A DNA stretch of 64,000 nucleotides from NCBI GenBank assembly GCA_023230105.1, contig JALNXY010000001.1:76395-140394 (forward strand), in the 5' to 3' direction. Below, piece after piece: positions 3,230 through 64,000 of the stretch. The position numbers and the translations under genes are program-made. Positions within the stretch are counted from its first letter, which is position 1. Every line of letters starts with the position of its first letter. Below the pieces are notes generated by a model. That model had not been told where the DNA came from, made no database searches, and saw nothing but the letters and a program-made list of their open reading frames with translations. Source of the DNA: Verrucomicrobiota bacterium. Lineage in GTDB: Bacteria > Verrucomicrobiota > Verrucomicrobiia > Limisphaerales > UBA1412.

Positions 3230-3260
3230 TTAACCGCAGATTACGCAGATTCGCGCAGAA
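3230..3260 (+). repeat. iteron-like motif TTAACCGCAGATTACGCAGATTCGCGCAGAA (distal boundary of array A)
   Basis: Three CGCAGAT-like units spaced 9-10 bp apart. Same orientation as the copy at 6410-6440. Confidence 0.8.
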
Positions 3261-3263
3261 GCA

Positions 3264-3650
3264 TCATTCAATTTTTCCCGTTTGGCCATTAATTTTAACT
3301 GCATTTTTTTTAAGAGCCCTATAATTCAAGGAAAGTGTCCCAAATGTATCCGCAATATAGTAAAATGAAGTATCGTGAAAACAAATCCAGTGATGTTTCA
3401 TTGATAACTTTTTACTTTCTGCAGCTCTTTTAAAAGCATTTGCAGGTGAAATATTAAATCCTGATGGAGGCTCCATTTCTTCTGGTGGCCATTCTTTTGA
3501 GTTATTCCATACCTCATTTAAGGCTTCTGTTTGTGCATCAGATTTGACATAACAACGATGACATCCTGTTTGTAATATGAATAATATTAAAATTAAAAAT
3601 AAGCGAAATAAATAATTAATAAAGTCTCTATTTTTCATTGTAATTTTCAA
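3264..3650 (-). CDS. array A cassette: small secreted/lipoprotein, PepSY-like pattern
   Basis: AT-rich ORF with a hydrophobic N-terminus ending LQTGC. The pattern ...ISPANAFKRAAES...YYI...AVKINGQTGKI resembles PepSY domains (weak). Overlaps the upstream cassette by 23 nt. Confidence 0.55.
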   Translation of the reverse strand: MKITMKNRDFINYLFRLFLILILFILQTGCHRCYVKSDAQTEALNEVWNNSKEWPPEEMEPPSGFNISPANAFKRAAESKKLSMKHHWICFHDTSFYYIADTFGTLSLNYRALKKNAVKINGQTGKIE

Positions 3651-4746
3651 TATTGTCTACTGAATGCAATAATTCTGTTTCATATGACTGAAAAATTATT
3701 TCTACTTTTTTATCAGAAAATCCAACCTTTGTTTTATAAAGTGATAAAGGAAACTCAAAATAAAATAATTCGTTTTGATTATCTGACCATCCAATCCATT
3801 CGTGGGCTAAGTAGTTTCTCCAGTCTTCCCACTCCAGAATCCTGGAAGTTTCTTTGTCTCTAATAATCACTCGTAGCTCACCCATACTGTGCGGATTTAT
3901 ATAACCAGAAATAAAATAATCTTCAGATGAACTAATTTCTCTGAGTTCTTCAAAATTTTCAACTCCTTTTATATAAATATTATTAACATTAAAATTATTT
4001 AATTTATTATTATTTTCAATAATAGATTTATTATTATACAATTCTTTAACAAGATATTCTGTATTATTTTCTTTTATTAAAGAAAATAATTTTGCAATTT
4101 TTTCTAATACCTTGTTTGTAATTTTTCTTTCTTTTATAAATGAACTTTCGTGAATATTTAAACTAATGCCGTCAGAAATTAAAATTAATAACGTTGAATC
4201 ATATTCTTTTATTTCCGACTCTCGTTGATTAGTATAATCTTCTGGCAAGAAAAAAAGTCGGACATTTTCGTCTGACGCCTTAGCAGAAGTAAATAAAAAA
4301 TTTTCAATCCAATAGTTCTCTTCTTGCAGACGACGGTAAACCTGTGTTTCTAATCCACATTTATTTGGATCAATTAAAAAATTAATCTCACACTGGACTA
4401 TATCATTTGAAACGTATGAAAATTTATCATCCAAATCTTTAAAAGGATTTTCTAACATCTGAGTGGTTTTTTCGTCTTTGATGAGTTCCAGAGGATTTCT
4501 ATATTCTGCTGTTATCCCATATCCGTTTGAAACATACCACTCTCTGGATGCGCAAAGAAACCAAAATAAAAATTTCTTTTCAAATGATGAAAATTTTTCA
4601 AATGATGAAAATTCTGAAGGTATTTTAATATCTACATATTCAGAATCTTTTTGCCATTCAAACGGATTTTCATCTTCTGATATTGTTTCTTTTTTGCATC
4701 CTAATATAAAACAAAACAATAAAACAATAAGTAATATATTTTTCAT
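3628..4746 (-). CDS. array A cassette: hypothetical lipoprotein (372 aa)
   Basis: Lipobox MKNILLIVLLFCFILGCKKE. Long uninterrupted ORF in very AT-rich DNA. No recognisable catalytic motif. Confidence 0.7.
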   Translation of the reverse strand: MKNILLIVLLFCFILGCKKETISEDENPFEWQKDSEYVDIKIPSEFSSFEKFSSFEKKFLFWFLCASREWYVSNGYGITAEYRNPLELIKDEKTTQMLENPFKDLDDKFSYVSNDIVQCEINFLIDPNKCGLETQVYRRLQEENYWIENFLFTSAKASDENVRLFFLPEDYTNQRESEIKEYDSTLLILISDGISLNIHESSFIKERKITNKVLEKIAKLFSLIKENNTEYLVKELYNNKSIIENNNKLNNFNVNNIYIKGVENFEELREISSSEDYFISGYINPHSMGELRVIIRDKETSRILEWEDWRNYLAHEWIGWSDNQNELFYFEFPLSLYKTKVGFSDKKVEIIFQSYETELLHSVDNIENYNEK

Positions 4747-4791
4747 ATTTTATAACTCATTTTTAGATTATTAAAAAAATGCTTCCTTCTA

Positions 4792-4932
4792 CTACTTGCA
4801 GCATTCAAAACCACTTGGATTCGAGTAACTGCCCGGGATGATCCCGTTCGCGGCGTCAACCACCAGCAGTTCATTTACCGCACCGCCAAACGCGCCTGAC
4901 AAATGTCCACAATTTATATTTTGCTGATTCAT
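4792..4932 (-). other. 46-codon ORF on a GC-rich patch inside array A, possible decayed Rhs-core fragment
   Basis: My translation: MNQQNINCGHLSGAFGGAVNELLVVDAANGIIPGSYSNPSGFECCK*. GAFGGAVNELLVVDAANG loosely resembles the Rhs-core AGGVGGLLxVxDAxxG segment. It is below the 60-aa cutoff of the ORF track. Confidence 0.3.
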
Positions 4933-4978
4933 TTTCTAACAGCGGAATTTATGTTTATTGACGGAGTACTTAAAAAAT

Positions 4979-5524
4979 TTATTTCCAAATACAGGAGCGG
5001 GTGTAAACAGTATTCTTGCTATGATCAATAACCACAATTAAATGGTACTCCCATTCACTGAGTTCTTTTGAAATACTTTGATCTCTAAAATAAAAGACTG
5101 CATCTTTATCTGGAATTTCTTTTAGCCACCATTCGGGAGGATTGGGATTGTTTCCATATAGAGATTTTGTTAAAAAGTCTATTTCATTATAATTTTTTTC
5201 ATGAAAAAACAGCGAATCATTTTTAGTCCATCCCTCCAAACTAAAAATCTTGTCGAGACAATTACTGTCATAATTGAACATCATCCACCGAGATGCTGTA
5301 TCTCCAACTGAAACCATTTTTACATAGATTTTCCCTAGTTTTTCAGAAGGATCCAACCCGAATTCCTGCTTAAAGGCCGGTGACTGCCCCGGATCATCCG
5401 TGTACTCAGAAGTGCTGAAATACACATAGGCTAAATATAAAAAAACAATAAATCCCAGTACAATAACCAGACAACCTATTGAAGACTTTTTAAGCATTGA
5501 AGTATTAAAATTTAATTGTTTCAT
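4979..5524 (-). CDS. array A cassette: N-terminally anchored hypothetical protein (181 aa from internal ATG)
   Basis: ATG at 5522-5524 gives MKQLNFNTSMLKKSSIGCLVIVLGFIVFLYLAYVY (TM anchor). The upstream 54 codons of the tracked ORF run out of frame through the GC-rich Rhs stub and are unlikely to be translated. Confidence 0.65.
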   Translation of the reverse strand: MKQLNFNTSMLKKSSIGCLVIVLGFIVFLYLAYVYFSTSEYTDDPGQSPAFKQEFGLDPSEKLGKIYVKMVSVGDTASRWMMFNYDSNCLDKIFSLEGWTKNDSLFFHEKNYNEIDFLTKSLYGNNPNPPEWWLKEIPDKDAVFYFRDQSISKELSEWEYHLIVVIDHSKNTVYTRSCIWK

Positions 5525-5738
5525 ACCATTCAAAGATTTGAGTAGTTGAATTGGGTGAATAGTAGCGATAGCGGTAGTAGACGAGGTCGGTTTCGTTGTC
5601 GGTGTATTTGGTCGAGAACTGGAAGGGGTCGACCTTTGCCATATCGACCACCGAGCAGAAAACTTCCCCAAAGGGTCCGTACTCATATTTCGCCGAGATA
5701 TTCCCGTCCGTCGCCAAGTGCAGATTACTTTGCCACAT
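5505..5738 (-). pseudogene. Rhs/YD-repeat core C-terminal stub (no toxin domain)
   Basis: ...LATDGNISAKYEYGPFGEVF...DPFQFSTKYTDNETDLVYYRYRYYSP matches the Rhs-associated core consensus YxYxPFGE...FRFSTKYxDxETGLxYYGxRYYxP. The GC-rich patch (~5535-5735) is flanked on both sides by AT-rich DNA. Only 15 AT-rich codons follow YYSP before the stop. Confidence 0.8.
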
Positions 5739-6138
5739 TATTATTTTTTATTATTTCATTATTTATTATTTTTATAATTTCTAAAATATTACTTTTAGAG
5801 TTTTCTGATGTTTCTTTATTTAAAATAAATTCAAGTTCTTGAATGGAATTCGTTCCAAATCGATCTAAAATTAAACCAGCTAAACAGACTCTTTCTGACA
5901 ATGTATCCGCATTTGCTGTTAGATGTAAATATACCTGATTCCAATATTTTGCATCTCTTTCCAGAGTCATGTTTACCATTACAATCCGCTTAAGAGGATC
6001 TTTCTCATGCTGAAGAGCATATTTATCATACCAATCAATTAATTTATATGGCAAAGAAGTACTGAGAGCTATAAGAAATATTATAGAAATTAAAAGAATT
6101 ATAAAATTTTTACTTATAAACTTATTACTAATTTTCAT
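5725..6138 (-). CDS. array A cassette: N-terminally anchored hypothetical protein (137 aa)
   Basis: MKISNKFISKNFIILLISIIFLIALS TM anchor. AT-rich. First full cassette after the leader. Confidence 0.65.
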   Translation of the reverse strand: MKISNKFISKNFIILLISIIFLIALSTSLPYKLIDWYDKYALQHEKDPLKRIVMVNMTLERDAKYWNQVYLHLTANADTLSERVCLAGLILDRFGTNSIQELEFILNKETSENSKSNILEIIKIINNEIIKNNNVAK

Positions 6139-6150
6139 ACCTATTCAATT

Positions 6151-6288
6151 TCACATCATTCTTTGAAAAGGGCTGACATTTATTTTAACTTTAACCGGGA
6201 CGCCACTGGAAGGATTCTTCGGAAGGCACCACGTATAGGAGCGCTCCAGAGCACCATTACCATCCGTCGTTGTCAGCAGATCAGTCAC
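6151..6288 (-). pseudogene. YD-repeat stub fused to the array A leader (GTG...NVTDLLTTTDGNGALERSYTW...)
   Basis: My translation from GTG 6288: VTDLLTTTDGNGALERSYTWCLPKNPSSGVPVKVKINVSPFQRMM*. VTDLLxxxDGNGxxxxxYxW is a YD-repeat pattern. The GC-rich part ends where the AT-rich tail begins. Confidence 0.55.
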
Positions 6289-6409
6289 GTTAGAATTCGT
6301 TTATATTTCGGGCATTTTGAGTTTACAAAGGTTCTTCGACATTTACACAATAATTACATCAGTGATTGTGGATGATTTTCGAAGGGATGCAATGTTTTTT
6401 CAAATTTTT
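6289..6409 (-). promoter_or_regulatory. conserved array leader, copy A: palindrome CACAAT-N13-ATTGTG plus promoter TTGTAA-17 nt-TATAAA
   Basis: The - strand reads ...cctTTGTAAactcaaaatgcccgaaaTATAAAcgaattctaacGTGact (-35 at 6323-6328, -10 at 6300-6305). Near-identical to 34103-34225 and clearly related to 59086-59212. Confidence 0.65.
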
Positions 6410-6440
6410 TTAACCGCAGATGACGCAGATTTGCACAGAT
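6410..6440 (+). repeat. iteron-like motif TTAACCGCAGATGACGCAGATTTGCACAGAT (proximal boundary of array A)
   Basis: Direct repeat of 3230-3260. The same motif recurs about 12 times in the window. Confidence 0.8.
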
Positions 6441-7011
6441 TTTTATTGGAGGGATGAACGGATGCGACCCCTACGGGGTCGTGGAAGAATGTGTGGGGGA
6501 TGTGTCTTACCCGGGGTCTACGACCCCGGGCTATGGGGATGGGTATGCTCCGCATACCTTAAGTTTGCTGCACCCCCGTGGGGTGCAGTAGGGAATTGAC
6601 GCGTGGAACCTTGGACCTGGAGACCACCGGGCACGAATCCCGATAGGGAAAAGTCCCGTGTTATGAGATGGGTATGCTCCGCATACCTCAAGAATGCGCA
6701 TCCCGGCGGATGCGGGAGAATACGATTCACACCTGTGGAAATACAAACGAATCCGCAGACCTCAGATTTGCTGCACCCCGAAAGGGGTGCAGAAGAAAAC
6801 AATTCGCACCGGAGGGAATACAAAACGCATTCGCATACCTCCTAATTCAGCATCCCGTAGGGATGCCAGCCTATAGCCCGGGGTCGCAGACCCCGGGGAA
6901 TCGGCCACCACCCAAGACCCCATTCGACCCTGGAGGGGTCGCATCCATACCTTGCTTAAAAAACAGGCACCCCGAAAAGGGAATATTGAGGAAGAGAAGG
7001 ATCCGCCGTTT
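6441..7011. repeat. mosaic of short GC-rich hairpin modules (REP/BIME-like)
   Basis: Recurrent palindromes: gcgaccccTACggggtcg, cccggggtcNNNgaccccggg, gggtatgctccgcatacc, ctgcaccccNNNggggtgcag, gcatcccNNNNgggatgc. The same modules occur in different order at 15583-16088, 17600-17788, 32773-33150, 34257-34665 and 58857-59052. Confidence 0.85.
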
Positions 7012-7032
7012 TTAACCGCAGATTACACAGAT
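7012..7032 (+). repeat. short (two-unit) iteron-like motif TTAACCGCAGATTACACAGAT
   Basis: Closes the hairpin mosaic in the same orientation as 6410-6440. Confidence 0.6.
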
Positions 7033-7148: not shown

Positions 7149-8828
7149 TCAATAACCGTCAGTCCGGTAGTTTATTTCTCCAAACTCGTTCGTGGCCGGG
7201 ATTTCCGATGAGAGGTCTATCTGATAGAACGGGTCACCGCCTCCTTTACCATCGTTGTATTTGGGAGGCAGGGTCTTGCCGGAAAGTTTGACAGGCGGAG
7301 TAAAGCAATAATCCGAAACGGCGGCCCGGCACTGTTCGATCCGGTCCGGGAATACCCGCAACACCATAAGATCAAATGACCAGATGAGGTCGCGTCCCAT
7401 TTCGACTTCCGGGCAATGGGCCTTGACACTCTGAAGCGCACTGGCCACGGTGTCGTCCGCTGTCGGGAAGTGTGTAGCGACCGTCAATTTGGGTTTGGGT
7501 TCGATCTGCTTGAGAATGTAGCCGAAGGCCCCTTGCGTCGTATGCGAACTATTCTGGACAGTTTCCATCGCCTTGACGGTCTGTTGAAACTCAGGATAGT
7601 CCGGGTCATCCTCAGAAGGAGGCGCATTCAGGCCCATGTTTTTATAGGCCCAGACCTCCGGAGGGACCACCATTTCATGAATGAAGACATCCACTCCCTT
7701 GCCGGCGTTCCTGGCTTGCTCGACGCAGTTCGTTTCGGGCTTGGTGTCGCTCGTATAAATCATGTTCAACTCGTCACCGCCGGGAGTTTGCCAGCTGAGT
7801 TTGTAGCCCATGGAGCCCTTGCGGGCGTGGATTACCGGGAAGTGCGTGATGGTAACGCTCGTGAGAGCATTGCTGTAGGCCACTCCGCCGACTTGCCTCC
7901 AATCCAACTCGATCGGCACCATGGCGTAGGAGTCATTATTGGCATCCTCGCCGACGGGCAGCGGCTCATGAGGCAGACCCCAGCTGGCTTGAGTGGGCGC
8001 TTCATAATCTTCGTAGGCAGTGGGCTGGAAGCTGAAGCTCTCCGTATGCCAGCGCAGGGCTTCGCGCAGATGCGAGCAAAAGGCTCTAACCCCGTCATCG
8101 TAATAGATGTTTGAATTGGTCGGGCTTTCAATACCGGTCGGCCCAGAGCCCCAGACGTAGAGCGGGGACTTGCGGTCTGACGCGGGACCGAAGCAGTAGG
8201 TATGAACCAGATCGCTCATGTGGTCGGCATGCAGGTGATTAATGAACACCTTATCCATGAGGCGATAGCCCACCTTGGCGGCGGCATAGTTGGCTGAGAC
8301 GCCAGCGCCCATATCGAAGACGAATTGATCCACCGGCTGGCCATGATAGAAGGAGTCACTGGGATCGTCTTGCCATCCCACCTCGACGAAGATGCTCATC
8401 TCCGCTTGAGCCCGGCGCACCGGCAATGGGATCATTGAGCCCATGAAAGTAATCCGCATCTCATTTGTATCGAGCGGGGTGAGCGGATCAAACAGCGGCA
8501 GTTTTTCATAATAGGTGTAGTGTTCTGTCGCTTGATAGTCGGGGTCCGGCGAAACGACCCGGTAGAACATCGGCACATCCACGGTTCCTTCCGGTCCCAG
8601 ACCGGTAAGGTTCGCGTCAGCGTCTTTCCAGGAGTACCAATGATTTGTCCCGTCCGGGGACCACTGTACAGCGCGGTTCGTGCCCGTTCCGCCCGTATCC
8701 TTCCAACTCAGTTTTCCATTACGGCTGAATGAAGTAATTTCCAACTGCGATTGCGCAATCGTAAGAGCCGAAGCAGCAACCGCAATTGTCGTTACGATCG
8801 TTGCCTGTATGGCATATCTCTTTTTCAT
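7149..8828 (-). CDS. secreted metallo-beta-lactamase-fold hydrolase
   Basis: HxHxDH motif in FINHLHADHMSDL. Signal peptide from ATG 8828 (MKKRYAIQATIVTTIAVAASALTIAQS). Confidence 0.75.
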   Translation of the reverse strand: MKKRYAIQATIVTTIAVAASALTIAQSQLEITSFSRNGKLSWKDTGGTGTNRAVQWSPDGTNHWYSWKDADANLTGLGPEGTVDVPMFYRVVSPDPDYQATEHYTYYEKLPLFDPLTPLDTNEMRITFMGSMIPLPVRRAQAEMSIFVEVGWQDDPSDSFYHGQPVDQFVFDMGAGVSANYAAAKVGYRLMDKVFINHLHADHMSDLVHTYCFGPASDRKSPLYVWGSGPTGIESPTNSNIYYDDGVRAFCSHLREALRWHTESFSFQPTAYEDYEAPTQASWGLPHEPLPVGEDANNDSYAMVPIELDWRQVGGVAYSNALTSVTITHFPVIHARKGSMGYKLSWQTPGGDELNMIYTSDTKPETNCVEQARNAGKGVDVFIHEMVVPPEVWAYKNMGLNAPPSEDDPDYPEFQQTVKAMETVQNSSHTTQGAFGYILKQIEPKPKLTVATHFPTADDTVASALQSVKAHCPEVEMGRDLIWSFDLMVLRVFPDRIEQCRAAVSDYCFTPPVKLSGKTLPPKYNDGKGGGDPFYQIDLSSEIPATNEFGEINYRTDGY

Positions 8829-10039: not shown

Positions 10040-10814
10040 TCTGGGAGGGGGTACTGGGGGCCTTCCGGGTGCGGCGCCGATAAATCCAAAGGCCCACACC
10101 GGCGGCGAAAATCACCCCGGCGATACACTGGGCCTGAGTCAGAGATAAAAAGATACGAGGTACATCGCCGCGGAAAAACTCGGTCGCGAAACGGATCACC
10201 CCATAGCCAACCAGGTAATAGGCCGTGATCTGGCCGTCATACTTGCGGCGGCGGAAGAAATATTCCAGGAGCCCGAAGAGAATCAGGTTCAGCCCCATTT
10301 CATAAAGCTGCACGGGGTGGATGCGCACTCCGTGGGTTTCATGCCAGTCGGGGTAAGAGAATCCATAGCCGGAGCCAGTCGGGCAGCCGTAGCAGCAGCC
10401 GTTAATGAAGCAGCCCAAGCGCCCGAGGGCATGACCGACCGCCAGGCTGGGTCCGAGAATATCGAGAAAAATCCAGACCGGTATTTTATTCTTCACCAGA
10501 TAAAACGCCGTCGTCACAATGCTGAAAAGCAGGCCCCCGAAATAAATCAAACCGCCGCGCTGAATGGCGAAAATCTCCCACAAGGGCTGGCCGGCAAAAT
10601 ACTCATCCCAGTAGGTGATGACGAAAAGCGCCCGGGCACCGACCAAAGCGCCGACCACGATCCAGGGAATCGAATCCATGAATTCCTTGGGAGTGACCGT
10701 CGTGAGCCGCGCACGCAGCGACCCGGTCCAGACACCGGCCAGGATGCCCAGAACGAACATCACCCCGTACCAGTAGATCGGGTGACCCGCTATTTCAAAA
10801 GCAACTCTTTCCAT
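10029..10814 (-). CDS. lgt: prolipoprotein diacylglyceryl transferase
   Basis: Polytopic membrane protein with HALGRLGCFINGCCYG and YPVQLYE-like (HPVQLYEMG) Lgt signatures. Confidence 0.9.
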   Translation of the reverse strand: MERVAFEIAGHPIYWYGVMFVLGILAGVWTGSLRARLTTVTPKEFMDSIPWIVVGALVGARALFVITYWDEYFAGQPLWEIFAIQRGGLIYFGGLLFSIVTTAFYLVKNKIPVWIFLDILGPSLAVGHALGRLGCFINGCCYGCPTGSGYGFSYPDWHETHGVRIHPVQLYEMGLNLILFGLLEYFFRRRKYDGQITAYYLVGYGVIRFATEFFRGDVPRIFLSLTQAQCIAGVIFAAGVGLWIYRRRTRKAPSTPSQNGK

Positions 10815-10860
10815 CTCAATAATTCTGAACTTTCACTTGAGTACAAAACCGAATCGGATA

Positions 10861-11934: not shown

Positions 11935-12055
11935 CGCAGCCTTTGCGTATCTTCACACAAAGCCCCTCGGCAAGAAAGATCAAAGATTGGCTTGGACTTT
12001 GGGGTGAAGGTCGATAAAATGACCCGTCTTTTGGCTATATATAATTAAATAGATC

Positions 12056-15492: not shown

Positions 15493-15513
15493 TCGCGCAT
15501 CGCCTCGAAATCT

Positions 15514-15576
15514 AACCACAGATGACGAAGCTTCAACCGCAGACGACGAAGCTTCAACCGCAGATGACGCAGATTC
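15514..15576 (+). repeat. 21-bp tandem triplication of the iteron-type unit
   Basis: aaccacagatgacgaagcttc / aaccgcagacgacgaagcttc / aaccgcagatgacgcagattc. Confidence 0.85.
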
Positions 15577-16200: not shown

Positions 16201-16224
16201 TACGAATAATACTGAAGTAAGTGA

Positions 16225-17034: not shown

Positions 17035-17079
17035 AAACTCGGAAGAATTAAGAGAAAACTTTTAGGACCAAAAAATCAA

Positions 17080-17598: not shown

Positions 17599-17599
17599 T

Positions 17600-58763: not shown

Positions 58764-58856
58764 AAATCTGCGCGAATCAGCACAACTCTGCGGTTTATTC
58801 TCTCCCTCAATATTCCCTTCAAAAAATCTGTGCGAATCTGCGTCATCTGCGGTTAA
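58764..58856 (-). repeat. two iteron-like motifs (degenerate 58764-58796; canonical 58824-58856)
   Basis: aaatctgcgcgaatcagcacaactctgcggttta and aaatctgtgcgaatctgcgtcatctgcggttaa. Confidence 0.75.
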
Positions 58857-59052
58857 GATTTTCCCTATCGGGATTCGTGATTATCTGACTCCATGCCCAT
58901 TTGCCTTGTGCCCAGCGGGCACACGCCTCGGAGAGGCGAATGTGCATAACCGTAGGTGCGGCTCCCGCAGGGAGACGTGCCTACGGATAGAAGCGGCCCC
59001 TGTGCTCCCGCCTGAAGGGCGGTACTTCACAACCTGGACTTCTCATTCCAAA
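58857..59052. repeat. upstream module of array D: degenerate 16-bp repeats, gtgcccagcgggcac hairpin, element E (58930-59048)
   Basis: Collinear with 15908-16085. Same junction ctgcggttaa|gattttccc. Confidence 0.85.
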
Positions 59053-59084
59053 AAATCTGCGCTCATCTGCGTAATCTGCGGTTA
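59053..59084 (-). repeat. iteron-like motif (aaatctgcgctcatctgcgtaatctgcggtta); proximal boundary of array D
   Basis: Directly precedes the A-rich spacer and leader D. Confidence 0.8.
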
Positions 59085-59085
59085 G

Positions 59086-59212
59086 AAAAAAATCGAAAAA
59101 AACATTGTAAAACATCGAAACTCATTCACAATACCGTATGTAATTTTTTGCGTAAATGTTGGAGCACCTTACTAAACTCAAAATGCCCGAAATATAATTG
59201 AATTTCAACGTG
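59086..59212 (+). promoter_or_regulatory. conserved array leader, copy D: promoter TACTAA-17 nt-TATAAT
   Basis: ...accttactaaactcaaaatgcccgaaaTATAATtgaatttcaacGTGact, with -10 at 59193-59198. Aligns with leaders A and C over ~125 nt. The palindrome is degenerate here. Confidence 0.6.
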
Positions 59213-59308
59213 ACTGATCTGCTAAACATGAGGGATACGACAGGGTCCGGGTACGGATACACCCCCTTGAATATACGAGAGATGCCTGAAAAAGGGTATA
59301 ATTTGTAA
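59210..59308 (+). other. 32-codon ORF starting at the conserved GTG (VTDLLNMRDTTGSGYGYTPLNIREMPEKGYNL*), YD-like stub
   Basis: Shares aacGTGACTGATCTGCT (NVTDLL) with array A. GC-rich patch. The stop overlaps the ATG of the first cassette. Confidence 0.35.
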
Positions 59309-59802
59309 TGAAAATATTTAAAATAAATTTAATTAAATCATTATTAATTTTAATATTCCCACTCATTATGCTGAGTGGGTGTGAAAAATACTATGAGGAG
59401 CTTGATAAAAAGCGAACTGAAGAGTTAAAATGCTGCGGTGAATTAAATATAATTTCTTTAAGAATATACAACGAATTTAAATACAATCAGAAAAAACCGG
59501 ATAGTATAAATAGATTGTGTCAAGTGTTTAAAGAAGATGGACAGCTTTCGTTCTTTGAATCTTATGGGCTAGAAAACCTTTATTTTAATCAAGATATCGA
59601 GCTATGGACTCATAGGGTAGATTATTATAATTCAACTAATATAGATTTTTTGACAGATAACAAAGATAATGAAATAAGAAAATTGGCTATCGCTTTAAAA
59701 ATAGAACCTGAAAAATATTTGGGAATAAGATTTGACGGTACATGGTGCAAGACAAACACACTTTCCCCGGAATTACATAATATCCTAATTGAACAAGAGT
59801 AA
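59308..59802 (+). CDS. array D cassette 1: hypothetical lipoprotein (164 aa)
   Basis: Lipobox LILIFPLIMLSGCEKY. AT-rich. Confidence 0.65.
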   Translation: MKIFKINLIKSLLILIFPLIMLSGCEKYYEELDKKRTEELKCCGELNIISLRIYNEFKYNQKKPDSINRLCQVFKEDGQLSFFESYGLENLYFNQDIELWTHRVDYYNSTNIDFLTDNKDNEIRKLAIALKIEPEKYLGIRFDGTWCKTNTLSPELHNILIEQE

Positions 59803-59803: not shown

Positions 59804-59932
59804 ATGAAAAATATTATCGACAGAGTCCATTTCCCTGCCCTGGACAAATGGCTAAGCAGAGGCCACATCGAAGAACGTGGTGGATTCAATCTCCGTGGTT
59901 TTGTGAATGATGATTCAGTGAATAAACAGTGA
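59804..59932 (+). pseudogene. Rhs core-end stub (MKNIIDRVHFPALDKWLSRGHIEERGGFNLRGFVNDDSVNKQ*)
   Basis: Position-for-position match to the Rhs core end RYYxPxxGRWLSRDPIxExGGxNLYxFVxNxPVNxxD with decayed residues. GC-rich patch between AT-rich cassettes. Stops before any toxin domain. Confidence 0.75.
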
Positions 59933-59951
59933 ATACTTAAAAAATATATTT

Positions 59952-60635
59952 ATGATTGAATTATTTAAAGATTTGATTATATTTGTTTTTACATTGTTTT
60001 ACAAAATAATATTTTTTATAATTGTTATTATTTTTCTTATATTTTCATTTGCTTTAAAATTCATTATTACTATTATCCTCCTTCCGTTAGCTTTGTTTTT
60101 AAGTGACCCTGAAGTAGATGCTGTTGATGTTATTGGAACATGGATTCCAGGAGAGCAGACATCTTTCGATATAACAAATAAAACATGTCAAATTATCTTT
60201 AATAAAGATGGAACGTTTGAAGGTTATTTTCCTTCTCCAGTGGTTCATTTCTCTGGAGTGGATGCCGGACAATGGAGCAATAGAGAAGATCGTGAAACAA
60301 TGTGTTATGGAATCGGCGACTGGTATATGGAACCAGTTAAAGAAGACGATGATTATTATGACAAATACAATAAAAAATATTTAGAAGGAGGATACCAAAA
60401 AGGTAATCAGATATCGTTATATTTTCGGGAAGTTGATGGTGATAGTTCTAAATCGATTGCTACTTGTTTATATATTCAATCCACCGCAGATTCTACCTTT
60501 TGGCAAGAGACTCAATTCAATCTTTTATCAAAATGTGAGAACTTCGATCTTTATTTTGGAATTGGGGACCCGGATTCCAGAAATAAGTTTAACTTTAAAA
60601 AGACAAGAGCCGTTGAGGAAGATAAGAAGGAGTAA
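59952..60635 (+). CDS. array D cassette 2: membrane-anchored hypothetical protein (227 aa)
   Basis: Two N-terminal hydrophobic segments followed by a soluble domain. Confidence 0.65.
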   Translation: MIELFKDLIIFVFTLFYKIIFFIIVIIFLIFSFALKFIITIILLPLALFLSDPEVDAVDVIGTWIPGEQTSFDITNKTCQIIFNKDGTFEGYFPSPVVHFSGVDAGQWSNREDRETMCYGIGDWYMEPVKEDDDYYDKYNKKYLEGGYQKGNQISLYFREVDGDSSKSIATCLYIQSTADSTFWQETQFNLLSKCENFDLYFGIGDPDSRNKFNFKKTRAVEEDKKE

Positions 60636-60647
60636 TGCTAAAGGCTA

Positions 60648-60722
60648 AGCAGAGACACGATCGAAGACCGCGGTGGATTCAATCTCTGTGGTTTTGTGAA
60701 TGATGATTCGGTGAATAAATGG
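60648..60722 (+). pseudogene. Rhs core-end stub, second copy (LSRDTIEDRGGFNLCGFVNDDSVNKW*)
   Basis: Near-identical at the DNA level to 59858-59932 (ggctaagcagag.cac.atcgaaga..g.ggtggattcaatctc.gtggttttgtgaatgatgattc.gtgaataaa). Closer to the LSRDPIEE consensus. Confidence 0.75.
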
Positions 60723-60730
60723 TAGATATT

Positions 60731-61276
60731 ATGAAAAAATTAAAGAAAATAAAAGTCTTATTTAAGTGGGTTAGTATTTTAATACTGCTATTGGTTCTAA
60801 TTGTTAGCGGATACATAGTGTATAACTTTATTGATTATTCTAAGAATAATCATAAAAAACTTTTCCGGAGCTATATAAATCCCATTCCTTCAACAATTGT
60901 TTTCGTTGATTCCGGGGTTTCGGGAATTATGGAACCATGGCAATTCCATTACGTGCAGTTAACACCTCAAAATTTCGATGATATTCTCAAATATCATCAG
61001 TATAGAAAAATTGATGAGCTTTCAGATGATGAGATAAAATCAATTGCAGATCCATCGGAGGAAGAATTTTTGGCTACTGAATACAAAAAGAATAGATATA
61101 ATAATTTTATTCGTTATTATAAAAACTTTGATATGAAATTTAAACTTCCATTTGATGTTAATAAAATAGATTTGTATGAGATATATTATAGAACAGATGT
61201 TTCAAATTCATATCATATTTTTCTAATTGTCAATCGCGAACATTCAGAATTGCTCGCACTTTATACACATATGTAA
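60731..61276 (+). CDS. array D cassette 3: N-terminally anchored hypothetical protein (181 aa)
   Basis: MKKLKKIKVLFKWVSILILLLVLIVSGYIVY anchor. ATG 60731 preferred over the tracked upstream start. Confidence 0.65.
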   Translation: MKKLKKIKVLFKWVSILILLLVLIVSGYIVYNFIDYSKNNHKKLFRSYINPIPSTIVFVDSGVSGIMEPWQFHYVQLTPQNFDDILKYHQYRKIDELSDDEIKSIADPSEEEFLATEYKKNRYNNFIRYYKNFDMKFKLPFDVNKIDLYEIYYRTDVSNSYHIFLIVNREHSELLALYTHM

Positions 61277-61423
61277 CAATGAAAGTTCTGCATAAAAGAC
61301 TCAAAAGGACTACATGAACGCCCAACTATCAGGCAGAGAAGGATTCAAGTGTGGATGCGCCCCCCTACAGGGGCGGGTGTGGCCGTGGGGTGGATTAATG
61401 CGTGGGCACATACAGATGATGTT

Positions 61424-61948
61424 ATGAAAAAGAATATTCAATCAGTACTTTTAGTGAGCGCAGGAATAATGGTTTTGTTGTTTTTGATTATTCCCGCGTT
61501 ATATACACCAACAGTCAAAGCTCCTTATCCTCAGACTTATGGCTCCCTTAAGCGACTTGGATTCTGGGTTAAACAATCCGAGCTTGATAATAAAACTTCA
61601 ATAGTTGATCTTATTAGGGACGCTGCGGTATCTTCTGAGTTTAATCTCCGAGAACAATTTTTTCATATGCTTCAAAATGACCTTGGGATCGATAATGATT
61701 CATTATCTATAATTGAGAAGTCAAAAAAAGATGGCTGGGGAATTCCTTTCAACATAGATTACACGACAAATATTAGTGGGCTTTCAAAAGAACTATTTAA
61801 TTCATTGAGCACATGTTCTATCGTGATATGGTCGAACGGGCCCAACCATGAAGATGAAAAATGTCTCGGCGATGACATTCCGTGGCCAATATCTGAACTG
61901 GAGTTGCATTTAGATGAATATCTCGAACTACTTCGAAAAAGAAGATAA
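61424..61948 (+). CDS. array D cassette 4: N-terminally anchored protein with GspG-like C-terminal domain
   Basis: MKKNIQSVLLVSAGIMVLLFLIIPALY anchor without a G/FTLIE prepilin site. DGWGIPFNIDY...IVIWSNGPNHEDEKCLGDDIPW parallels the GspG pattern DPWG..Y......S.GPDG....DDI.NW. Confidence 0.6.
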   Translation: MKKNIQSVLLVSAGIMVLLFLIIPALYTPTVKAPYPQTYGSLKRLGFWVKQSELDNKTSIVDLIRDAAVSSEFNLREQFFHMLQNDLGIDNDSLSIIEKSKKDGWGIPFNIDYTTNISGLSKELFNSLSTCSIVIWSNGPNHEDEKCLGDDIPWPISELELHLDEYLELLRKRR

Positions 61949-62019
61949 TCAAATACCTGAATTTTTCGACGTGGTCCGTAATATTACGGCAGGTATGGGG
62001 CCCCCGGCTACTTACTTGA

Positions 62020-62130
62020 AATATCTCTTACGATAGCTGGAACCTGGTGCACTCCTATGCGTGGGGATTGGATGCCGGTGGGAGCATGCAGGGAGCCGGG
62101 GGAATAAAAATGAGAAAGGAAAGAGAATGA
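62020..62130 (+). pseudogene. Rhs core internal stub (...NLVHSYAWGLDAGGSMQGAGGIKMRKERE*)
   Basis: YxWGxDxxGSxQGAGG(VGGLL) is a recurrent block of Rhs-associated core domains. GC-rich patch ~62040-62105. The stop overlaps the ATG of cassette 5. Confidence 0.6.
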
Positions 62131-62531
62131 AGAAGATTTTGTGGCAAGGGATTCCTTGGGTAATTCTGGTGTGCCTATGTTTCGTTTTTTGGATTGTAAA
62201 AGAATTGATGACAATAAGAGATTGGCCTTTAAGTTCTGGTACCATAAAAATAGAAAAAGTATCTATCGGAGAAAGAAACTTTATTCTGATCGATGGCGAA
62301 CCTATGAATTATTTAGCTCAAGTGCAATCTATTAACGTGGAGTTAGATAGCTCACTAAATGAAGTGAAGGTTAACCGATACAGAATTTTTTGGTGCCCCT
62401 TTACTGAAATCACGGTCAACAATCAATTTCCCATTTTGTATTCAATTGATGGATGGAAGCCAGGAAAATACTCCGTGGTTTATGGATCTGAGACAGGAGA
62501 TGTTTTAGCAGGCGAATTCGAGATTCCTTGA
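62127..62531 (+). CDS. array D cassette 5: N-terminally anchored hypothetical protein (134 aa)
   Basis: MKKILWQGIPWVILVCLCFVFWIV anchor then a beta-rich-looking domain. ATG 62127 preferred over the tracked start in the GC-rich stub. Confidence 0.6.
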   Translation: MKKILWQGIPWVILVCLCFVFWIVKELMTIRDWPLSSGTIKIEKVSIGERNFILIDGEPMNYLAQVQSINVELDSSLNEVKVNRYRIFWCPFTEITVNNQFPILYSIDGWKPGKYSVVYGSETGDVLAGEFEIP

Positions 62532-62780
62532 GATAGCGTGCACCAGAATGAAGCAAAAGCTCAGAGAGAATGAAGAACCAACTATCAGGCAGAGAAGGAT
62601 TCAAGTGTGGATGCGCCCCCTCCAGGGCGGGTGTGGCCTAATCGACGGAATGACCGGTGCACCGCAGATGACATAGTACAGGGAATCCCATATAGCGTGA
62701 TAAAGAAAGATGAAGAGGTTTCTTTGCGAAAATTACGAGAAGTGTATACAGGCCCACAATATTGATAATTTAATATAAAT

Positions 62781-63095
62781 ATGAAAAGAATTTATTTATT
62801 GGCTTTATCTGCATCCGCGGCGTGTTTATTTCTTTCCTACCTCTTTATCCGGTATCTAACAATGCCGCTTGTGAAGATATTTGTAACACCGCAGACTCTA
62901 GTCTGGAACTCTGAAACAAATAAATATGACCCAGTTTGGACCATGGGAGAAATGGAGAAAATAGGGGACTTTGTTCAAATAGAGTCTATGATTGCGATTG
63001 CATTATCGCTAATCGTGTTTTTTGGAGTTGTATTTGTTGGACGAAGGAATAAAAGGAAGGGAAGTAGAGCGGAAGAATCAAAAATCAAAATGTAA
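62781..63095 (+). CDS. array D cassette 6: small 2-TM protein (104 aa)
   Basis: Two hydrophobic segments and a basic tail. Confidence 0.55.
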   Translation: MKRIYLLALSASAACLFLSYLFIRYLTMPLVKIFVTPQTLVWNSETNKYDPVWTMGEMEKIGDFVQIESMIAIALSLIVFFGVVFVGRRNKRKGSRAEESKIKM

Positions 63096-63106
63096 ATATT
63101 TTTATT

Positions 63107-63982
63107 ATGAAAATAATTAAATGGTTTTTAAAGTTTTTCGCATATTTTTTTCTGCTACTTGTTTTCATAATATTTGTCTCTATATGTCTTTCTGTATTGA
63201 ATATTTTTAGGAATTTACCTTTTGAGCCATCTCAAATTAAATCTGTCACATTTTACTGTGTGGACCCTTTCGATCTCATGGATTATGAAGGGTACCTCAC
63301 TTACATAGAGCCTTATTCTTACAAGCTCAGTTTGGAAGAGGCCCAACTGCTATTCAAGGAAACACAAGGAAATATCCATACAGGCTGGAAGGGTGGAAGG
63401 TTTCTCGGGGTAGTAGAGCTTGAAAATGGAAAAAGATACGATATGGCCATGGGTATGATGTCCGATTATAAGGTTTTACATAAGGGACTCCATATGCGTT
63501 TCAGTGGTGAGTCCGCTGCTCTGTATGAGGAGTTATCGGGAAAACTATATGGGGATTGTCAACCGTTGTTAAAATCCAAAATAGGATTGAATCAAATTAA
63601 AAAGAATTTAGACATTTTAGAAAAGGGCGGTGAATATTCTTTAGAGGAGCTATTTGGGAACGAGAAGGAAAGTCTGGAAATCAATCGTCAGTTAAGCAAA
63701 ATTTTTCAAACGTCAACCAATGAGGATGGGGGGAATATCTTCCATACCTCTGAAATATCGGTAAAAGATGGTCTCCTTTGCGATGCTTATGAAACACCAC
63801 TTTTTTTTACAAGTGGGAGCAAGGAATGGGCTTCAAAAGTCAATCCACTCATGAAGCCTATGAGCGAAAACTTTTTTGTTTGGTCCTCCGGGAAAAATCA
63901 ATCTAACGAGTTTGGATTTGGAGATGACATCTTTTTCCCAAAAACCCGATTCGAGCCCTTTGTCATACATCTAAGCTGGTAA
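63107..63982 (+). CDS. array D cassette 7: N-terminally anchored protein with GspG-like C-terminal motif (291 aa)
   Basis: MKIIKWFLKFFAYFFLLLVFIIFVSICLSVL anchor. C-terminal FFVWSSGKNQSNEFGFGDDIFFP resembles the pseudopilin S.G.....E.G.GDDI motif. Confidence 0.6.
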   Translation: MKIIKWFLKFFAYFFLLLVFIIFVSICLSVLNIFRNLPFEPSQIKSVTFYCVDPFDLMDYEGYLTYIEPYSYKLSLEEAQLLFKETQGNIHTGWKGGRFLGVVELENGKRYDMAMGMMSDYKVLHKGLHMRFSGESAALYEELSGKLYGDCQPLLKSKIGLNQIKKNLDILEKGGEYSLEELFGNEKESLEINRQLSKIFQTSTNEDGGNIFHTSEISVKDGLLCDAYETPLFFTSGSKEWASKVNPLMKPMSENFFVWSSGKNQSNEFGFGDDIFFPKTRFEPFVIHLSW

Positions 63983-64000
63983 AAAACCGATAAGTGCGGA

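Follow-up and report, generated by a model that had tools for sequence, protein, structure and literature searches.

Four dispersed AT-rich islands of a Limisphaerales-related verrucomicrobium as probable immunity-only remnants of Rhs toxin/immunity modules

Classical Rhs elements show a GC-rich core adjoining an AT-rich tip and an immunity gene. For the orphan type, the promoter of an orphan Rhs toxin in Salmonella is a precedent (PMC7043789), and orphan immunity gene arrays built by displacement have been described (PMC5361080; bioRxiv 10.1101/471110). The window studied here, i.e., the whole 64-kb stretch of DNA analyzed, belongs to an uncultured Limisphaerales-related verrucomicrobium and contains four AT-rich islands (arrays A–D); in A and D, with a trace in B, GC-rich core pieces lie beside AT-rich genes, as in classical Rhs elements. 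These islands are probably dispersed orphan-type Rhs C-terminal toxin/immunity modules that have decayed to immunity-only (polyimmunity) arrays.

The GC content per 1-kb bin was 0.29–0.37 in array A, 0.39–0.40 in array B, 0.40 in array C and 0.33–0.41 in array D vs. 0.52–0.59 in the neighbouring bins, which agreed with the initial annotation of four AT-rich segments between GC-rich flanks (29–41% vs. 52–59%). The genes within each array were co-directional, and array D extended beyond the window end. Neither an integrase, transposase or recombinase gene nor a full-length rhs gene was found within the 64-kb window, as had been stated earlier for all of these except the recombinase. The window also contained genes for T2SS-F and prepilin peptidase, both unrelated to the arrays. 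The array anatomy given in the initial annotation was correct overall; the heads and borders were as follows:

3231–3250, minus strand: tail iteron of array A, ATCTGCGTAATCTGCGGTTA, oriented as the head iteron
6289–6440, minus strand: head unit of array A (ATCTGYG ×3 iteron at 6411–6440, A-tract, conserved leader)
6403–6375: promoter-like TTGAAA-17-GAAAAT in the head of array A
6441–7032, minus strand: hairpin mosaic upstream of array A, bounded by another iteron at 7013–7032
15513–16090: whole left border of array B, spanning two mosaics and iterons
15513–15583, minus strand: inverted iteron cluster of this border, then a mosaic
about 15880–15908, plus strand: iteron of this border, then the second mosaic
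16089–16224, plus strand: head of array B, triple iteron and the first half only of the leader
17618–17822, plus strand: hairpin mosaic and tail iteron of array B
17801–17820 (wider, about 17782–17822), plus strand: tail iteron of array B, oriented as the head iteron
32741–33200, minus strand: tail iteron and tail-side hairpin mosaic of array C
32742–32761 (wider, about 32741–32779), minus strand: tail iteron of array C, oriented as the head iteron
34103–34225 and about 34226–34256, minus strand: leader and triple iteron of the array C head
34257–34660, minus strand: upstream hairpin mosaic of array C (with the head, 34103–34660)
58817–59204, plus strand: upstream border of array D (iteron at about 58817–58857, mosaic, then head)
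about 59046–59086 and on to 59204, plus strand: iteron and leader of the array D head

In the direction of transcription, every array began with approximately three copies of ATCTGCG (the iteron), followed by an A-tract and then the conserved leader. The CGCAGAT motif occurred 38 times in the window vs. 9.8 ± 3.4 expected, a number reached in none of 100 shuffles, and its double and triple copies marked the array borders. The head units of arrays A, B, C and D could be aligned with one another and with copies from other genomes (13 head copies from several genomes in one alignment), which bore out the proposed common head unit, including the truncated leader of array B, where the second half was missing; copies on other contigs and in other genomes likewise indicated that the head is not confined to the window. 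The description of the arrays as paralogous held for the heads and failed for the cassettes, which had no paralogy to one another. The promoter previously assigned to the leader was only a promoter-like site with a 9/12 match to the consensus (TTGAAA-17/18-GAAAAT), whose position was shared by heads A and C and the related locus L007. The arrays may be transcribed from the head. It should be noted that one head in L002 preceded the gene of a 490-aa leucine-rich-repeat protein and not an Rhs module.

The direct-repeat brackets were real: the iteron was found at the tails of arrays A, B and C, and for array D at position 7947 of locus L009, where the hairpin mosaic continued for ~650 bp past the window end and included an inverted iteron, then came the direct tail iteron and a convergent glycosyltransferase gene. 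The left and right sequence contexts were shuffled among iteron copies. In the window, 50 approximate matches to seven families of short GC-rich palindromes and to the iteron were obtained (palindromes counted on both strands), all of them in 1-kb bins containing or adjoining the four arrays and none in the rest of the window; the mosaics had more stable folds than shuffled sequences (z = −3.7 and −4.5), so that the flanking hairpin mosaics reported earlier were corroborated. Metagenome contigs with the same rplM (ribosomal protein L13 gene) reached the array B tail or broke in or near it.

In related Verrucomicrobiota of the order Limisphaerales, the head was located 5′ of intact short genes encoding the ~130 C-terminal residues of the Rhs core and a variable toxin tip, followed by small genes; the head in these relatives is, as judged from sequence, the 5′ region of short Rhs-tail-toxin genes. 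At locus L007, the mosaic, iteron and leader preceded a 294-aa ORF composed of the Rhs tail and an Ntox16 domain, with two small ORFs after it, and L006 and L013 had the same arrangement. At L022, the iteron and leader were followed by three ORFs of 344, 576 and 319 aa, encoding Rhs-tail or longer Rhs toxins and alternating with small anchor or lipoprotein genes, one of which had weak HEAT-repeat Pfam matches, and the array terminated at an iteron. A HMMER search with the Rhs core tail against 1.84 billion representatives gave 13,726 matches; those with 79–96% identity were mostly proteins of 170–470 aa, with a few shorter fragments, and in the 13 close matches inspected the tail was at or near the N-terminus, while the C-terminal tips differed in most. 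Full-length Rhs proteins (1.7–2.1 thousand aa) had only 60–68% identity to the core tail; no full-length rhs gene with the same core tail was found, and two word-indexed Rhs searches returned only proteins of ≤224 aa.

Pieces of the same core were present in the window, which substantiated the Rhs/YD stubs noted in arrays A and D and the weak trace in array B; array C had no Rhs stub:

6208–6288, minus strand: head-proximal start of the Rhs tail in array A, GTG VTDLLTTTDGNGALERSYTW, cut after YTW, weak match
5505–5738, minus strand: Rhs core stub in array A, core homology at 5553–5714 (...YEYGPFGEVFC...YYRYRYYSP)
16627–16651, plus strand: minimal Rhs core trace in array B, SGGVHFPA
59205–59300, plus strand: head-proximal start of the Rhs tail in array D, VTDLLNMRDTTGSGYGYTP..., truncated
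59822–59926, plus strand: stub from the very 3′ terminus of the Rhs core in array D, ..LDKWLSRGHIEERGGFNLRGFVNDDSVNK
60645–60722, plus strand: second Rhs core 3′-end stub in array D, LSRDTIEDRGGFNLCGFVNDDSVNKW, repeat family D10
61974–62106, plus strand: Rhs core stub in array D, ..TAGMGPPATYLKYL / YDSWNLVHSYAWGLDAGGSMQGAGG, internal deletion, cut after QGAGG

The stub at 6208–6288 matched the start of the intact L022 toxin ORF, VTALLTTTDKTNAPVRSYTWGLD, and the region 5553–5714 showed 85–87% identity in tblastn (E = 1e-26 to 1e-28) and matched TIGR03696 (33.5 bits, cut-off 32.5). The array B trace comprised 24 nt identical to the L006 core DNA (read by eye) and matched the L022 core at 17/18 nt (blastn, E = 0.25). 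The 59822–59926 stub lacked a toxin tip and led directly into the next cassette. At 5505–5738, the stub ran into the 15 C-terminal residues of a toxin that was otherwise deleted, and the cassette at 4979–5524 directly downstream of it occupies the immunity position. At L010, the same gene followed a differently deleted toxin remnant ending, as in the window, in TQI[FY]EWYETIKF; both stubs had the same last 12 residues and different core breakpoints, and the two toxin deletions were independent.

The 17 cassettes between these elements were as follows:

3264–3650, minus strand: array A, 128 aa, N-terminal membrane anchor
3628–4746, minus strand: array A, 372-aa predicted lipoprotein, ILGC lipobox
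4979–5524, minus strand: array A, about 181 aa from MKQLNF, N-terminal anchor
5725–6138, minus strand: array A, 137 aa, N-terminal anchor
16225–16569, plus strand: array B, 114 aa, 3 predicted membrane segments
16666–17034, plus strand: array B, 122 aa, 4 predicted membrane segments, common to strain L013 (99% aa)
17080–17268, plus strand: array B, 62-aa ORF made of pieces
17278–17598, plus strand: array B, 106 aa, common to strain L013 (95% aa)
33256–33780, minus strand: array C, 174-aa predicted lipoprotein, kept at the locus in three strains
33797–34102, minus strand: array C, about 98–101 aa, 3 predicted membrane segments, strain-specific
59308–59802, plus strand: array D, 164-aa predicted lipoprotein (LSGC)
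59952–60635, plus strand: array D, 227 aa, N-terminal anchor, an orphan whose homologue occupies the cognate-immunity position
60719–61276, plus strand: array D, 185 aa, N-terminal anchor
61349–61948, plus strand: array D, 199 aa (probably 174 aa from MKKNIQ), N-terminal anchor
62061–62531, plus strand: array D, 156 aa (probably 134 aa from MKKILW), N-terminal anchor
62781–63095, plus strand: array D, 104 aa, 2 predicted membrane segments
63107–63982, plus strand: array D, 291 aa, N-terminal anchor

In a simple scan for hydropathy and lipoboxes, all 17 products had an N-terminal hydrophobic segment, directly followed by a lipobox in 4/17, and 4/17 had 2–4 predicted membrane segments, in line with the earlier assignment to lipoproteins, N-terminally anchored and 2–4-TM proteins. 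Since all cassette products are envelope-targeted, the Rhs toxins that they would counter probably act in the cell envelope. Pfam matched none of the 16 products scanned (all except the 62-aa ORF; E ≤ 0.01), and no known immunity family was found among them. The 174-aa lipoprotein weakly resembled the model for C-type lysozyme inhibitors, at a score below the threshold (E = 0.0045). Among 10 cassettes analyzed with PADLOC, the only match was a weak one of the 137-aa product to Cas10 (E = 0.0044, 13.9 bits), treated as chance. Two single-sequence structure models (mean pLDDT 55 and 46) were too poor for a fold search. The 372-aa gene was found in only 2 contigs of the public collection, and the array of locus L003 contained a relative of the 61349–61948 cassette with 30% identity. 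Residues 1–43 of the 62-aa ORF matched the beginning of the L013 gene for a 182-aa lipoprotein (88%), and residues 39–62 matched another L013 stretch (5199–5270).

By position, only one of the 17 cassettes was tied to a toxin. The 59952–60635 cassette had 94.6% amino acid and 96% nucleotide identity (710 nt) to the L022 gene at 3180–3863, with window positions 59932–60641 aligned to L022 3161–3869 (96% DNA identity). This near-identical homologue is located 15 nt downstream of the intact 344-aa Rhs-tail-toxin ORF, so that the suggested relation of the cassettes to rhs toxins was borne out in this case; the toxin tip (about 2572–3160) is missing from the window at the cassette. The core genes of the L022 species had only ~80% DNA identity to those of the window (87% protein identity for CysS, cysteinyl-tRNA synthetase), and since the cassette reached 96%, the sequence comparison points to its horizontal exchange. 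The other 16 cassettes may have a similar immunity function.

Cassette content varied between strains at fixed loci. At locus C (window, L002 and L004 compared), other strains carried 73/74-aa and 160-aa genes in place of the 33797–34102 cassette, which in the window was fused directly to the head GTGACTG; at locus B, where the window was compared with L013, the latter carried a full head and an Rhs stub. In the sister species, neither a leader nor called genes were found at loci A, B and C, in agreement with the view that the cassettes are not core genes. Locus A of this species contained iteron–mosaic–iteron alone, locus C a solo iteron and a ~190-bp mosaic alone, and locus B neither iteron nor mosaic, the whole of 15427–17863 being absent. 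Homology to the sister species resumed at 3239, inside the array A tail iteron, while the borders of the locus C indel lay somewhere within repeated iteron/mosaic DNA and were not placeable on the iteron itself.

In relatives, the intact unit starts with a hairpin mosaic and the ATCTGCG iteron; next come the AT-rich leader, which includes a promoter-like site, and a short ORF for the last ~130 Rhs core residues and a variable toxin tip, followed by at least one small envelope immunity gene. According to the proposed scheme, new modules would recombine with the conserved head and Rhs tail and so enter head-proximally, displacing older modules downstream; toxin tips would be lost through internal deletions, leaving core stubs cut at differing points, and the immunity genes would be retained and read from the common head. 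Whole arrays may be gained or lost at sites marked by the iteron/mosaic repeats, which could involve Campbell-type recombination at the iteron or recombination between its direct repeats, whether by general or by dedicated recombination enzymes. The likely benefit would be protection from Rhs toxins delivered by related neighbours.

Thus, the initial proposal of an undescribed cassette/immunity system was overstated, as the head corresponds to the 5′ region of Rhs-tail-toxin genes, while orphan Rhs toxin/immunity arrays and immunity-only islands had been named correctly as the closest analogues. The arrays are decayed members of this known class, formed by toxin deletion with the immunity gene retained. 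Compared with known interbacterial-defence loci, their dispersal, conserved non-coding head and iteron/mosaic borders are uncommon: a known kind of locus is here scattered over many sites, each with a conserved head and an unusual border repeat.

The 17 small array genes (cassettes) were distributed over four arrays:

3230–6440, minus strand: array A
16089–17821, plus strand: array B
32741–34256, minus strand: array C
59053 to beyond the window end, plus strand: array D

The GC content of these segments was 29–41% in 1-kb bins, as against 52–59% in the adjoining bins, in agreement with the AT-richness noted earlier by eye, and each array comprised from two to at least seven co-directional genes. 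The CGCAGAT motif was found in 38 copies versus approximately 10 expected, and its clustered copies were located at the array borders, as iterons with the consensus (ATCTGYGnn) × 2–3 followed by GGTTAA. An iteron not only opened the head unit of each array (iteron, A-tract and conserved leader) but also ended its tail in the same orientation, so that the direct-repeat brackets proposed in the initial annotation were real; the tail iteron of array D lay beyond the window end and was seen in L009, a locus in which this array continues. The flanking hairpin mosaics, also proposed earlier, were found to consist of seven families of short GC-rich palindromes, which varied in order and orientation and occurred in intergenic DNA only; the mosaics folded better than shuffled sequence (z = −3.7 and −4.5). 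Iterons and hairpins were limited to the 1-kb bins containing or adjoining the four arrays, with none elsewhere in the window, and Rfam and tRNA scans of the window gave no matches. Two types of sequence were present on the left side of the iteron, one hairpin-ending (GGGCGG...CTTCTCATTCAAAAAA) and the other ending GGGGTCGCATCC..., while the right side was the leader, 'AGATTTTCCC...' or a unique flank, and these types were combined differently among copies. The DNA between cassettes was mixed (Rhs stubs, i.e., cut fragments of the Rhs core, single hairpins, overlaps, or about 10 nt), and the only repeats inside arrays were two core-end stubs and two hairpin copies, all in array D. No attC-like site common to the cassette borders was found, these borders being Rhs stubs, hairpins or nothing. 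At three places, inverted iteron pairs with outward TTAACC ends surrounded a hairpin mosaic of approximately 260–400 bp, resembling small non-autonomous transposable elements, and the outer border of the whole B island was an inverted-iteron end of the same TTAACC type.

Inverted iteron pairs enclosing hairpin mosaics
Window, 15513 (minus) and 15887 (plus), span 15513–15908
L009, 7662 (minus) and 7947 (plus), span 7640–7966
L022 (locus of the sister species), 10424 (minus) and 10686 (plus), span 10424–10705

The heads of arrays A, C and D aligned over about 165–250 bp, and array B retained the first half only, in line with the truncation originally described. Thirteen heads from several genomes could be aligned, and in all 13 one iteron end abutted the leader. 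Upstream of the GTG codon, the leader was conserved as DNA, with the frame shifted between copies by indels; an upstream leader peptide was consequently ruled out, an ATG ORF being open only in the related loci L006, L007 and L013. No conserved RNA structure was found in the leader (RNAalifold −0.56 kcal/mol), which contained only a 5-bp inverted repeat, CACAA...TTGTG, approximately 20–45 bp downstream of the promoter-like GAAAAT (e.g., window 34160–34190, minus strand). One position of this repeat co-varied (C-G to T-A) in L007 and L013; too weak as an RNA structure, it could be a putative pair of operator half-sites. The promoter-like sequence TTGAAA-17/18-GAAAAT occupied the same head position in A, C and L007, with a mere 9/12 match to the consensus, and a sigma-70 scan of the AT-rich array D was uninformative (29 sites versus 18.7 expected).

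In the heads of the window, the GTG and about 20 initial codons were preserved before the sequence broke off. In L007, a 294-aa ORF (P0026) came after the same mosaic, iteron and leader; it reads MVEAHINSKRPKYQVTDQ...LVRAYTWGLDASGSMQGAGG...YEYGPFGEVFC...YYGYRYYSPALGRWLSRDPIEE...DPVNKWDRLGL before an Ntox16 domain, and two small ORFs lie behind it; L006 and L013 had the same head-to-Rhs-tail junction. In L022, the iteron and leader were followed by a 344-aa ORF starting from the conserved GTGACTG (VTALLTTTDKTNAPVRSYTWGLD...), and further Rhs-toxin ORFs of 576 and 319 aa alternated with anchor or lipoprotein genes, the array ending in a stub and an iteron; one of the partner genes gave weak HEAT-repeat matches. 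From these intact junctions, the head is the 5′ region of short Rhs-tail-toxin genes that form a clade-specific class. Head-pattern scans returned only two loci in a one-genome-per-species collection and two in JGI metagenomes; the head is restricted to a narrow, rarely sampled clade, and a full-length Rhs gene of another organism (L011) was without it. The use of the head is not limited to Rhs modules, because in L002, a locus of strain UBA1412, one copy directly precedes a leucine-rich-repeat (BspA-like) surface-type gene (2754–4226); a large gene of this kind was also present beside the L022 array (10849–13326).

A search of 1.84 billion representatives with the 129-aa core tail gave 13,726 matches. 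Those with 79–96% identity were mostly proteins of 170–470 aa, with a few shorter fragments, whereas full-length Rhs proteins had just 60–68% identity. In the 13 matches examined, the tail was at or near the N-terminus, and most continued into differing C-terminal tips. Word-indexed protein searches with Rhs queries returned no protein longer than 224 aa, and no full-length rhs gene was present in the 64-kb window, where the arrays abutted housekeeping genes. Stubs of the same metagenome-assembled genome gave no recorded match on exact look-up. In the locus-B array of L013, a 141-aa ORF (3447–3872) had weak similarity to PPPDE peptidase and DUF4796_C (E = 3 × 10−5 to 4 × 10−4, below the cut-off) and is probably a toxin-tip remnant. 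On a 28,983-bp contig of the same genome as the window, P0193 (M0Q48_09875) was a 147-aa chimera, in which a twin-arginine signal from a gene of the C_GCAxxG_C_C family was fused in frame to an Rhs core stub; in L007, the gene of this family lies just after the array. Therefore, more arrays are present on other contigs of this genome and are able to disrupt neighbouring genes.

The Rhs-core stubs reported in the initial annotation were recovered in arrays A and D and as a trace in B; array C had none. The following were located in arrays A and D:

5505–5738, array A, minus strand: Rhs stub, TIGR03696 above the cut-off
5714–5553, array A, minus strand: Rhs stub, tblastn
6288–6208, array A, minus strand: weak Rhs stub, tblastn
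59822–59926, 60645–60722 and 61974–62106, array D, plus strand: Rhs stubs, tblastn

No toxin domain was found behind any of the window stubs in the Pfam scan of 16 of the 17 cassette products. The loss of a toxin could be followed in array D, where window positions 59932–60641 were 96% identical over 710 nt to L022 3161–3869. The latter segment opens with the last five bases of an intact toxin ORF, and a 227-aa gene starts 15 nt later; its product (3180–3863) and that of the window cassette 59952–60635 were 94.6% identical. Upstream of the window cassette, only the degraded stub 59822–59926, corresponding to the last ~35 residues of the core, was present, and approximately 590 nt encoding the L022 toxin tip were missing. 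The order of core-end stub and cassette recurred at 60645–60722. In array A, the stub 5505–5738 read ...YYRYRYYSP, followed by NSTTQIFEWYETIKF and a stop, and adjoined cassette 4979–5524; in the related locus L010, the same downstream cassette stood behind a remnant cut after ...ALVRSY and ending ...TQIYEWYETIKF. The two remnants result from separate, independent deletions inside a single toxin gene whose partner was retained. Thus, two cassettes were placed by position, one beside an intact toxin in L022 (59952–60635) and one beside a toxin remnant (4979–5524), and the role of the other 15 as immunity genes is inferred. Cassette 59952–60635 was much closer between the window and the sister species than were their core genes (~80% DNA identity), which fits horizontal exchange and selection for protection.

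The envelope-type character previously ascribed to the cassette products was supported by simple hydropathy and a lipobox scan: all 17 started with a hydrophobic segment, with a lipobox right behind it in four and two to four predicted membrane segments in four. The cassettes were unrelated to each other. Pfam (16 of the 17 cassettes) and NCBIfam searches gave no immunity family or other meaningful match, and PADLOC applied to ten cassettes gave one weak match to Cas10 (E = 0.0044), which was treated as chance. The cassettes of relatives likewise received no usable annotation from Pfam, NCBIfam or PADLOC, apart from the weak PPPDE-like remnant in L013. The 174-aa lipoprotein encoded at 33256–33780 (minus strand), predicted to be all-beta at low confidence, had weak, sub-threshold similarity to the C-type lysozyme inhibitor PRK11372 (E = 0.0045; 17 bits versus a cut-off of 168), which might point to immunity against a toxin that degrades the cell wall. 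AlphaFold models of the 174-aa and 227-aa cassette products (mean pLDDT 55 and 46, respectively) were too poor for fold comparison. By eye, the partner genes of the intact toxins in L022 had the same anchor and lipobox appearance as the window cassettes. Since all 17 cassettes are envelope-targeted, the matching toxins probably act in the envelope, periplasm or membrane, unlike what is usually assumed of Rhs nuclease tips. The 17 products, without known-family matches in the scans run, are candidates for new immunity families.

Two other readings of these genes were weighed. The short Rhs-tail toxins and their partners could be intracellular, toxin–antitoxin-like selfish modules with their own promoter, the arrays being antitoxin graveyards uninvolved in defence against other bacteria. 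The promoter-like head and start codon directly before a shell-less Rhs tail agree with this, as does the failure to find a full-length rhs gene in the window or in the protein searches with Rhs queries. The reading is nevertheless very unlikely: the anchors and lipoboxes of the cassettes, shared by eye with the L022 partners, misfit a cytoplasmic leaderless toxin; the retention of the partner after loss of the toxin is the opposite of what addiction predicts; and near-identical immunity genes in species of ~80% identity fit selection for protection from foreign toxins. Least probable of the readings considered is that the cassettes are a variable set of small proteins of the surface or envelope (serving, for example, to mask phage receptors, in adhesion or in anti-phage defence) that accumulate at recombination-prone, repeat-rich sites, with the Rhs fragments as bystanders. 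Such a repertoire would be in keeping with the envelope targeting of all cassettes, their lack of immunity-family matches, the leucine-rich-repeat genes behind the L002 head and after the L022 array, and an MmeI-type restriction-modification island, by which the region is seen to accept other accessory DNA. Against it, Rhs stubs lie between the cassettes where modules meet, the head is in itself the 5′ end of Rhs-tail genes, an intact toxin has one of the cassettes as its partner, and PADLOC, for the ten cassettes scanned, produced only the chance-level Cas10 match. The reading of the arrays as orphan-type Rhs modules decayed to polyimmunity arrays is well supported as regards both origin and function.

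Array content was compared among strains with 95–97% DNA identity, namely UBA1412 (L002 and L003), GCA_009930015.1 (L013) and several metagenome contigs, and with a syntenic sister species ('Limisphaerales bacterium', 2.74-Mb contig; ~80% DNA identity; cysteinyl-tRNA synthetase CysS, 87% protein identity). An Akkermansia origin was rejected, the close relatives and their source names indicating Limisphaerales.

Gene content of locus C in three strains and state of three sister-species loci
Locus C, window: head, then genes of 101 and 174 aa
Locus C, UBA1412: head, leucine-rich-repeat gene, head, 160-aa, 73-aa and 172-aa genes
Locus C, L004 (third strain): head, 74-aa, 171-aa and 213-aa genes
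Sister locus C: intergenic, 360 bp, containing a single iteron and ~190 bp of mosaic
Sister locus A: 869 bp, iteron–mosaic–iteron
Sister locus B: 314 bp, devoid of iterons and hairpins; 66 bp in place of window 15427–17863

At locus B, L013 had a complete head with an Rhs stub and six cassettes, two of them common to the window; a locus beside the ammonium transporter gene held different arrays in two genomes. The tandem units of L002 had iterons between them, and strain-specific cassettes were head-proximal. The sister species had neither leader nor called genes at A, B and C, the three loci reached. The sequence AAAATAA at the B island was discounted as a target-site duplication, its complexity being too low. 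In the sister locus L032, rpsI (ribosomal protein S9) directly precedes a 3-keto-disaccharide hydrolase gene, whereas the two are ~7.5 kb apart in the window (17.8–27.7 kb); therefore, the chromosome was rearranged beside array B.

The modules would enter via recombination in the conserved head and tail, and the toxins would be lost by deletion, following the models for Rhs elements and Vibrio immunity arrays (PMC5361080); the head-proximal position of the strain-specific cassettes fits such entry. Gain and loss of whole arrays would proceed via the iteron and mosaic repeats, by general or dedicated enzymes. In the latter case, the iterons would be sites of a recombinase or transposase encoded elsewhere that captures, inserts and excises Rhs-tail/immunity modules at landing pads, an integron-like or mobile-module capture of immunity genes without an adjacent integrase; we consider both formulations unlikely. 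What speaks for them is that same-orientation iterons bracket every array, separate the tandem units of L002, have shuffled left and right contexts and, with the hairpins, occur in the window only beside arrays; that the single iteron of sister locus C and the iteron–mosaic–iteron of locus A are expected of pre-integration or post-excision states; that inverted iteron pairs, their TTAACC ends facing outward, surround mosaics in the manner of small non-autonomous transposable elements; and that the B island, which has inverted iterons at its bounds, is missing in its entirety, with its repeats, in the sister species. However, neither the window nor the called genes of the ~20-kb loci L022, L028, L031 and L032 included a recombinase or transposase, and the cassette borders lacked a common attC-like site. 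The iteron is a direct heptamer repeat, unlike tyrosine-recombinase sites, which typically have an inverted-arm core; the possible duplication at B is unconvincing; and general homologous recombination on a repeat of 40–200 bp would give the same products. There is accordingly only a modest chance that a dedicated trans-acting system uses the iteron as its site, capturing Rhs-tail toxin/immunity modules and moving them among chromosomal landing pads; as part of this doubtful scheme, the pads might be seeded by small iteron-ended mosaic elements, with the head as insertion junction and shared promoter/operator. If true, such a system would be a dispersed, integrase-distant counterpart of the integron that specialises in genes for interbacterial immunity.

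The rest of the window was housekeeping, apart from an MmeI-type restriction-modification gene, and contained no integrase or transposase. This gene (905 aa, all five MmeI Pfam domains) is the single gene of a fifth AT-rich island at 43194–45911 (plus strand; GC 0.37–0.43), without iteron or hairpins; the gap between the T2SS-F gene and cysS in the sister species is only 155 bp, and the island is therefore an independent insertion. The region 25000–26400 (GC 0.46), unrelated to the arrays, contained two diverged tandem copies (651–849 bp apart, 74–89% identical) carrying a small ORF, in which there were internal repeats of 33 nt (11 residues) and a weak match of apolipoprotein type.

The arrays described here extend Rhs toxin/immunity turnover to Limisphaerales-type Verrucomicrobiota, a phylum for which no description of it was found in the literature searched; at least one related contig came from an anaerobic-digester metagenome. 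They provide a compact natural example of the deletion of toxin genes and the hoarding of immunity genes, with one gene 96% identical between species that are ~80% identical, and raise the questions of whether a shared iteron-first head is a common regulatory unit of many immunity arrays and whether array-specific repeats serve as recombination sites for arrays appearing and disappearing at fixed positions.

Among known systems, Rhs elements with orphan rhs-CT/rhsI modules and C-terminal displacement, as far as they are presented in Jackson et al. 2009 (cited in PMC5361080), PMC3150448 and PMC7043789, are similar in having a fragment of the conserved GC-rich Rhs core that precedes a variable, AT-rich tip with its small immunity gene, co-directional stacking, stubs cut at different core positions, and a turnover thought to be driven by core recombination; a promoter of an orphan Rhs toxin has a precedent in Salmonella (PMC7043789). 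Unlike these modules, the window arrays stand alone in several housekeeping intergenic regions rather than behind a full-length rhs gene, each has at its start a conserved head, non-coding and fused to the final ~130 residues of the core, every toxin tip in the window is deleted, array-specific repeats lie at the borders, and the host is verrucomicrobial, with no Rhs-delivery secretion system encoded in the window. The variable toxin behind the core of classical orphans, absent from the window, is present in relatives with the same head (Ntox16 protein P0026 in L007; 344, 576 and 319 aa in L022).

In the T6SS clusters of Vibrio cholerae, orphan immunity arrays arise by sequential effector displacement (PMC5361080). 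There, too, effectors are replaced or lost, immunity genes are retained with effector remnants, and orphans are highly similar to cognate genes of other strains, pointing to horizontal transfer. The Vibrio arrays follow a complete effector gene at the 3′ end of T6SS clusters, whereas the window contains neither such a cluster nor a complete effector, and here every array has the shared head and iteron/mosaic borders. Polyimmunity loci of polymorphic toxin systems, in the form cited from Zhang et al. 2012 in PMC5361080, are tandem immunity-family genes with or without a toxin; one window cassette (59952–60635) corresponds to them by genomic position and none by Pfam or NCBIfam immunity family.

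The recombinase-associated acquired interbacterial defence clusters (rAID-1) of Bacteroidales are defined by a XerD-like tyrosine recombinase gene at the 5′ end, at least two co-directional downstream genes with GC ≤41%, and repetitive intergenic sequence (bioRxiv 10.1101/471110). The window arrays resemble them in their co-directional low-GC genes of immunity type (from two to at least seven per array, GC 0.29–0.41), repetitive non-coding DNA, strain-variable content and an organisation which suggests that genes are actively acquired. They differ in that no recombinase domain was found in the window, the array flanks being housekeeping genes, in that the DNA between cassettes is heterogeneous, with no repeat in common, and in that several small arrays are present instead of one large one, with a head that is the start of an Rhs-tail gene. 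An integron was ruled out, there being no integrase in the window and no recurrent site at the cassette borders.

The REP/BIME repeats of enterobacteria and the dRS3/RS NIME repeats of Neisseria are short GC-rich palindromic units that occur between genes in variable order and orientation; the Neisseria dRS3 repeat alternates with longer segments, and such repeats are linked with variable loci. The palindromic mosaics of the window are similarly intergenic and variable, and the iteron alternates with them as dRS3 does; no sequence relationship to either group is known. No REP-associated tyrosine transposase or recombinase was encoded in the window or the ~20-kb pieces of relatives, and the window repeats, in contrast to REP, BIME and NIME, occur only beside Rhs-derived arrays. 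Thus, of the undescribed system proposed in the initial annotation, a real and well-delimited feature stands, while its class, decayed Rhs modules, is a known one; the remaining novelty is mostly in the iteron/mosaic borders and the shared head.
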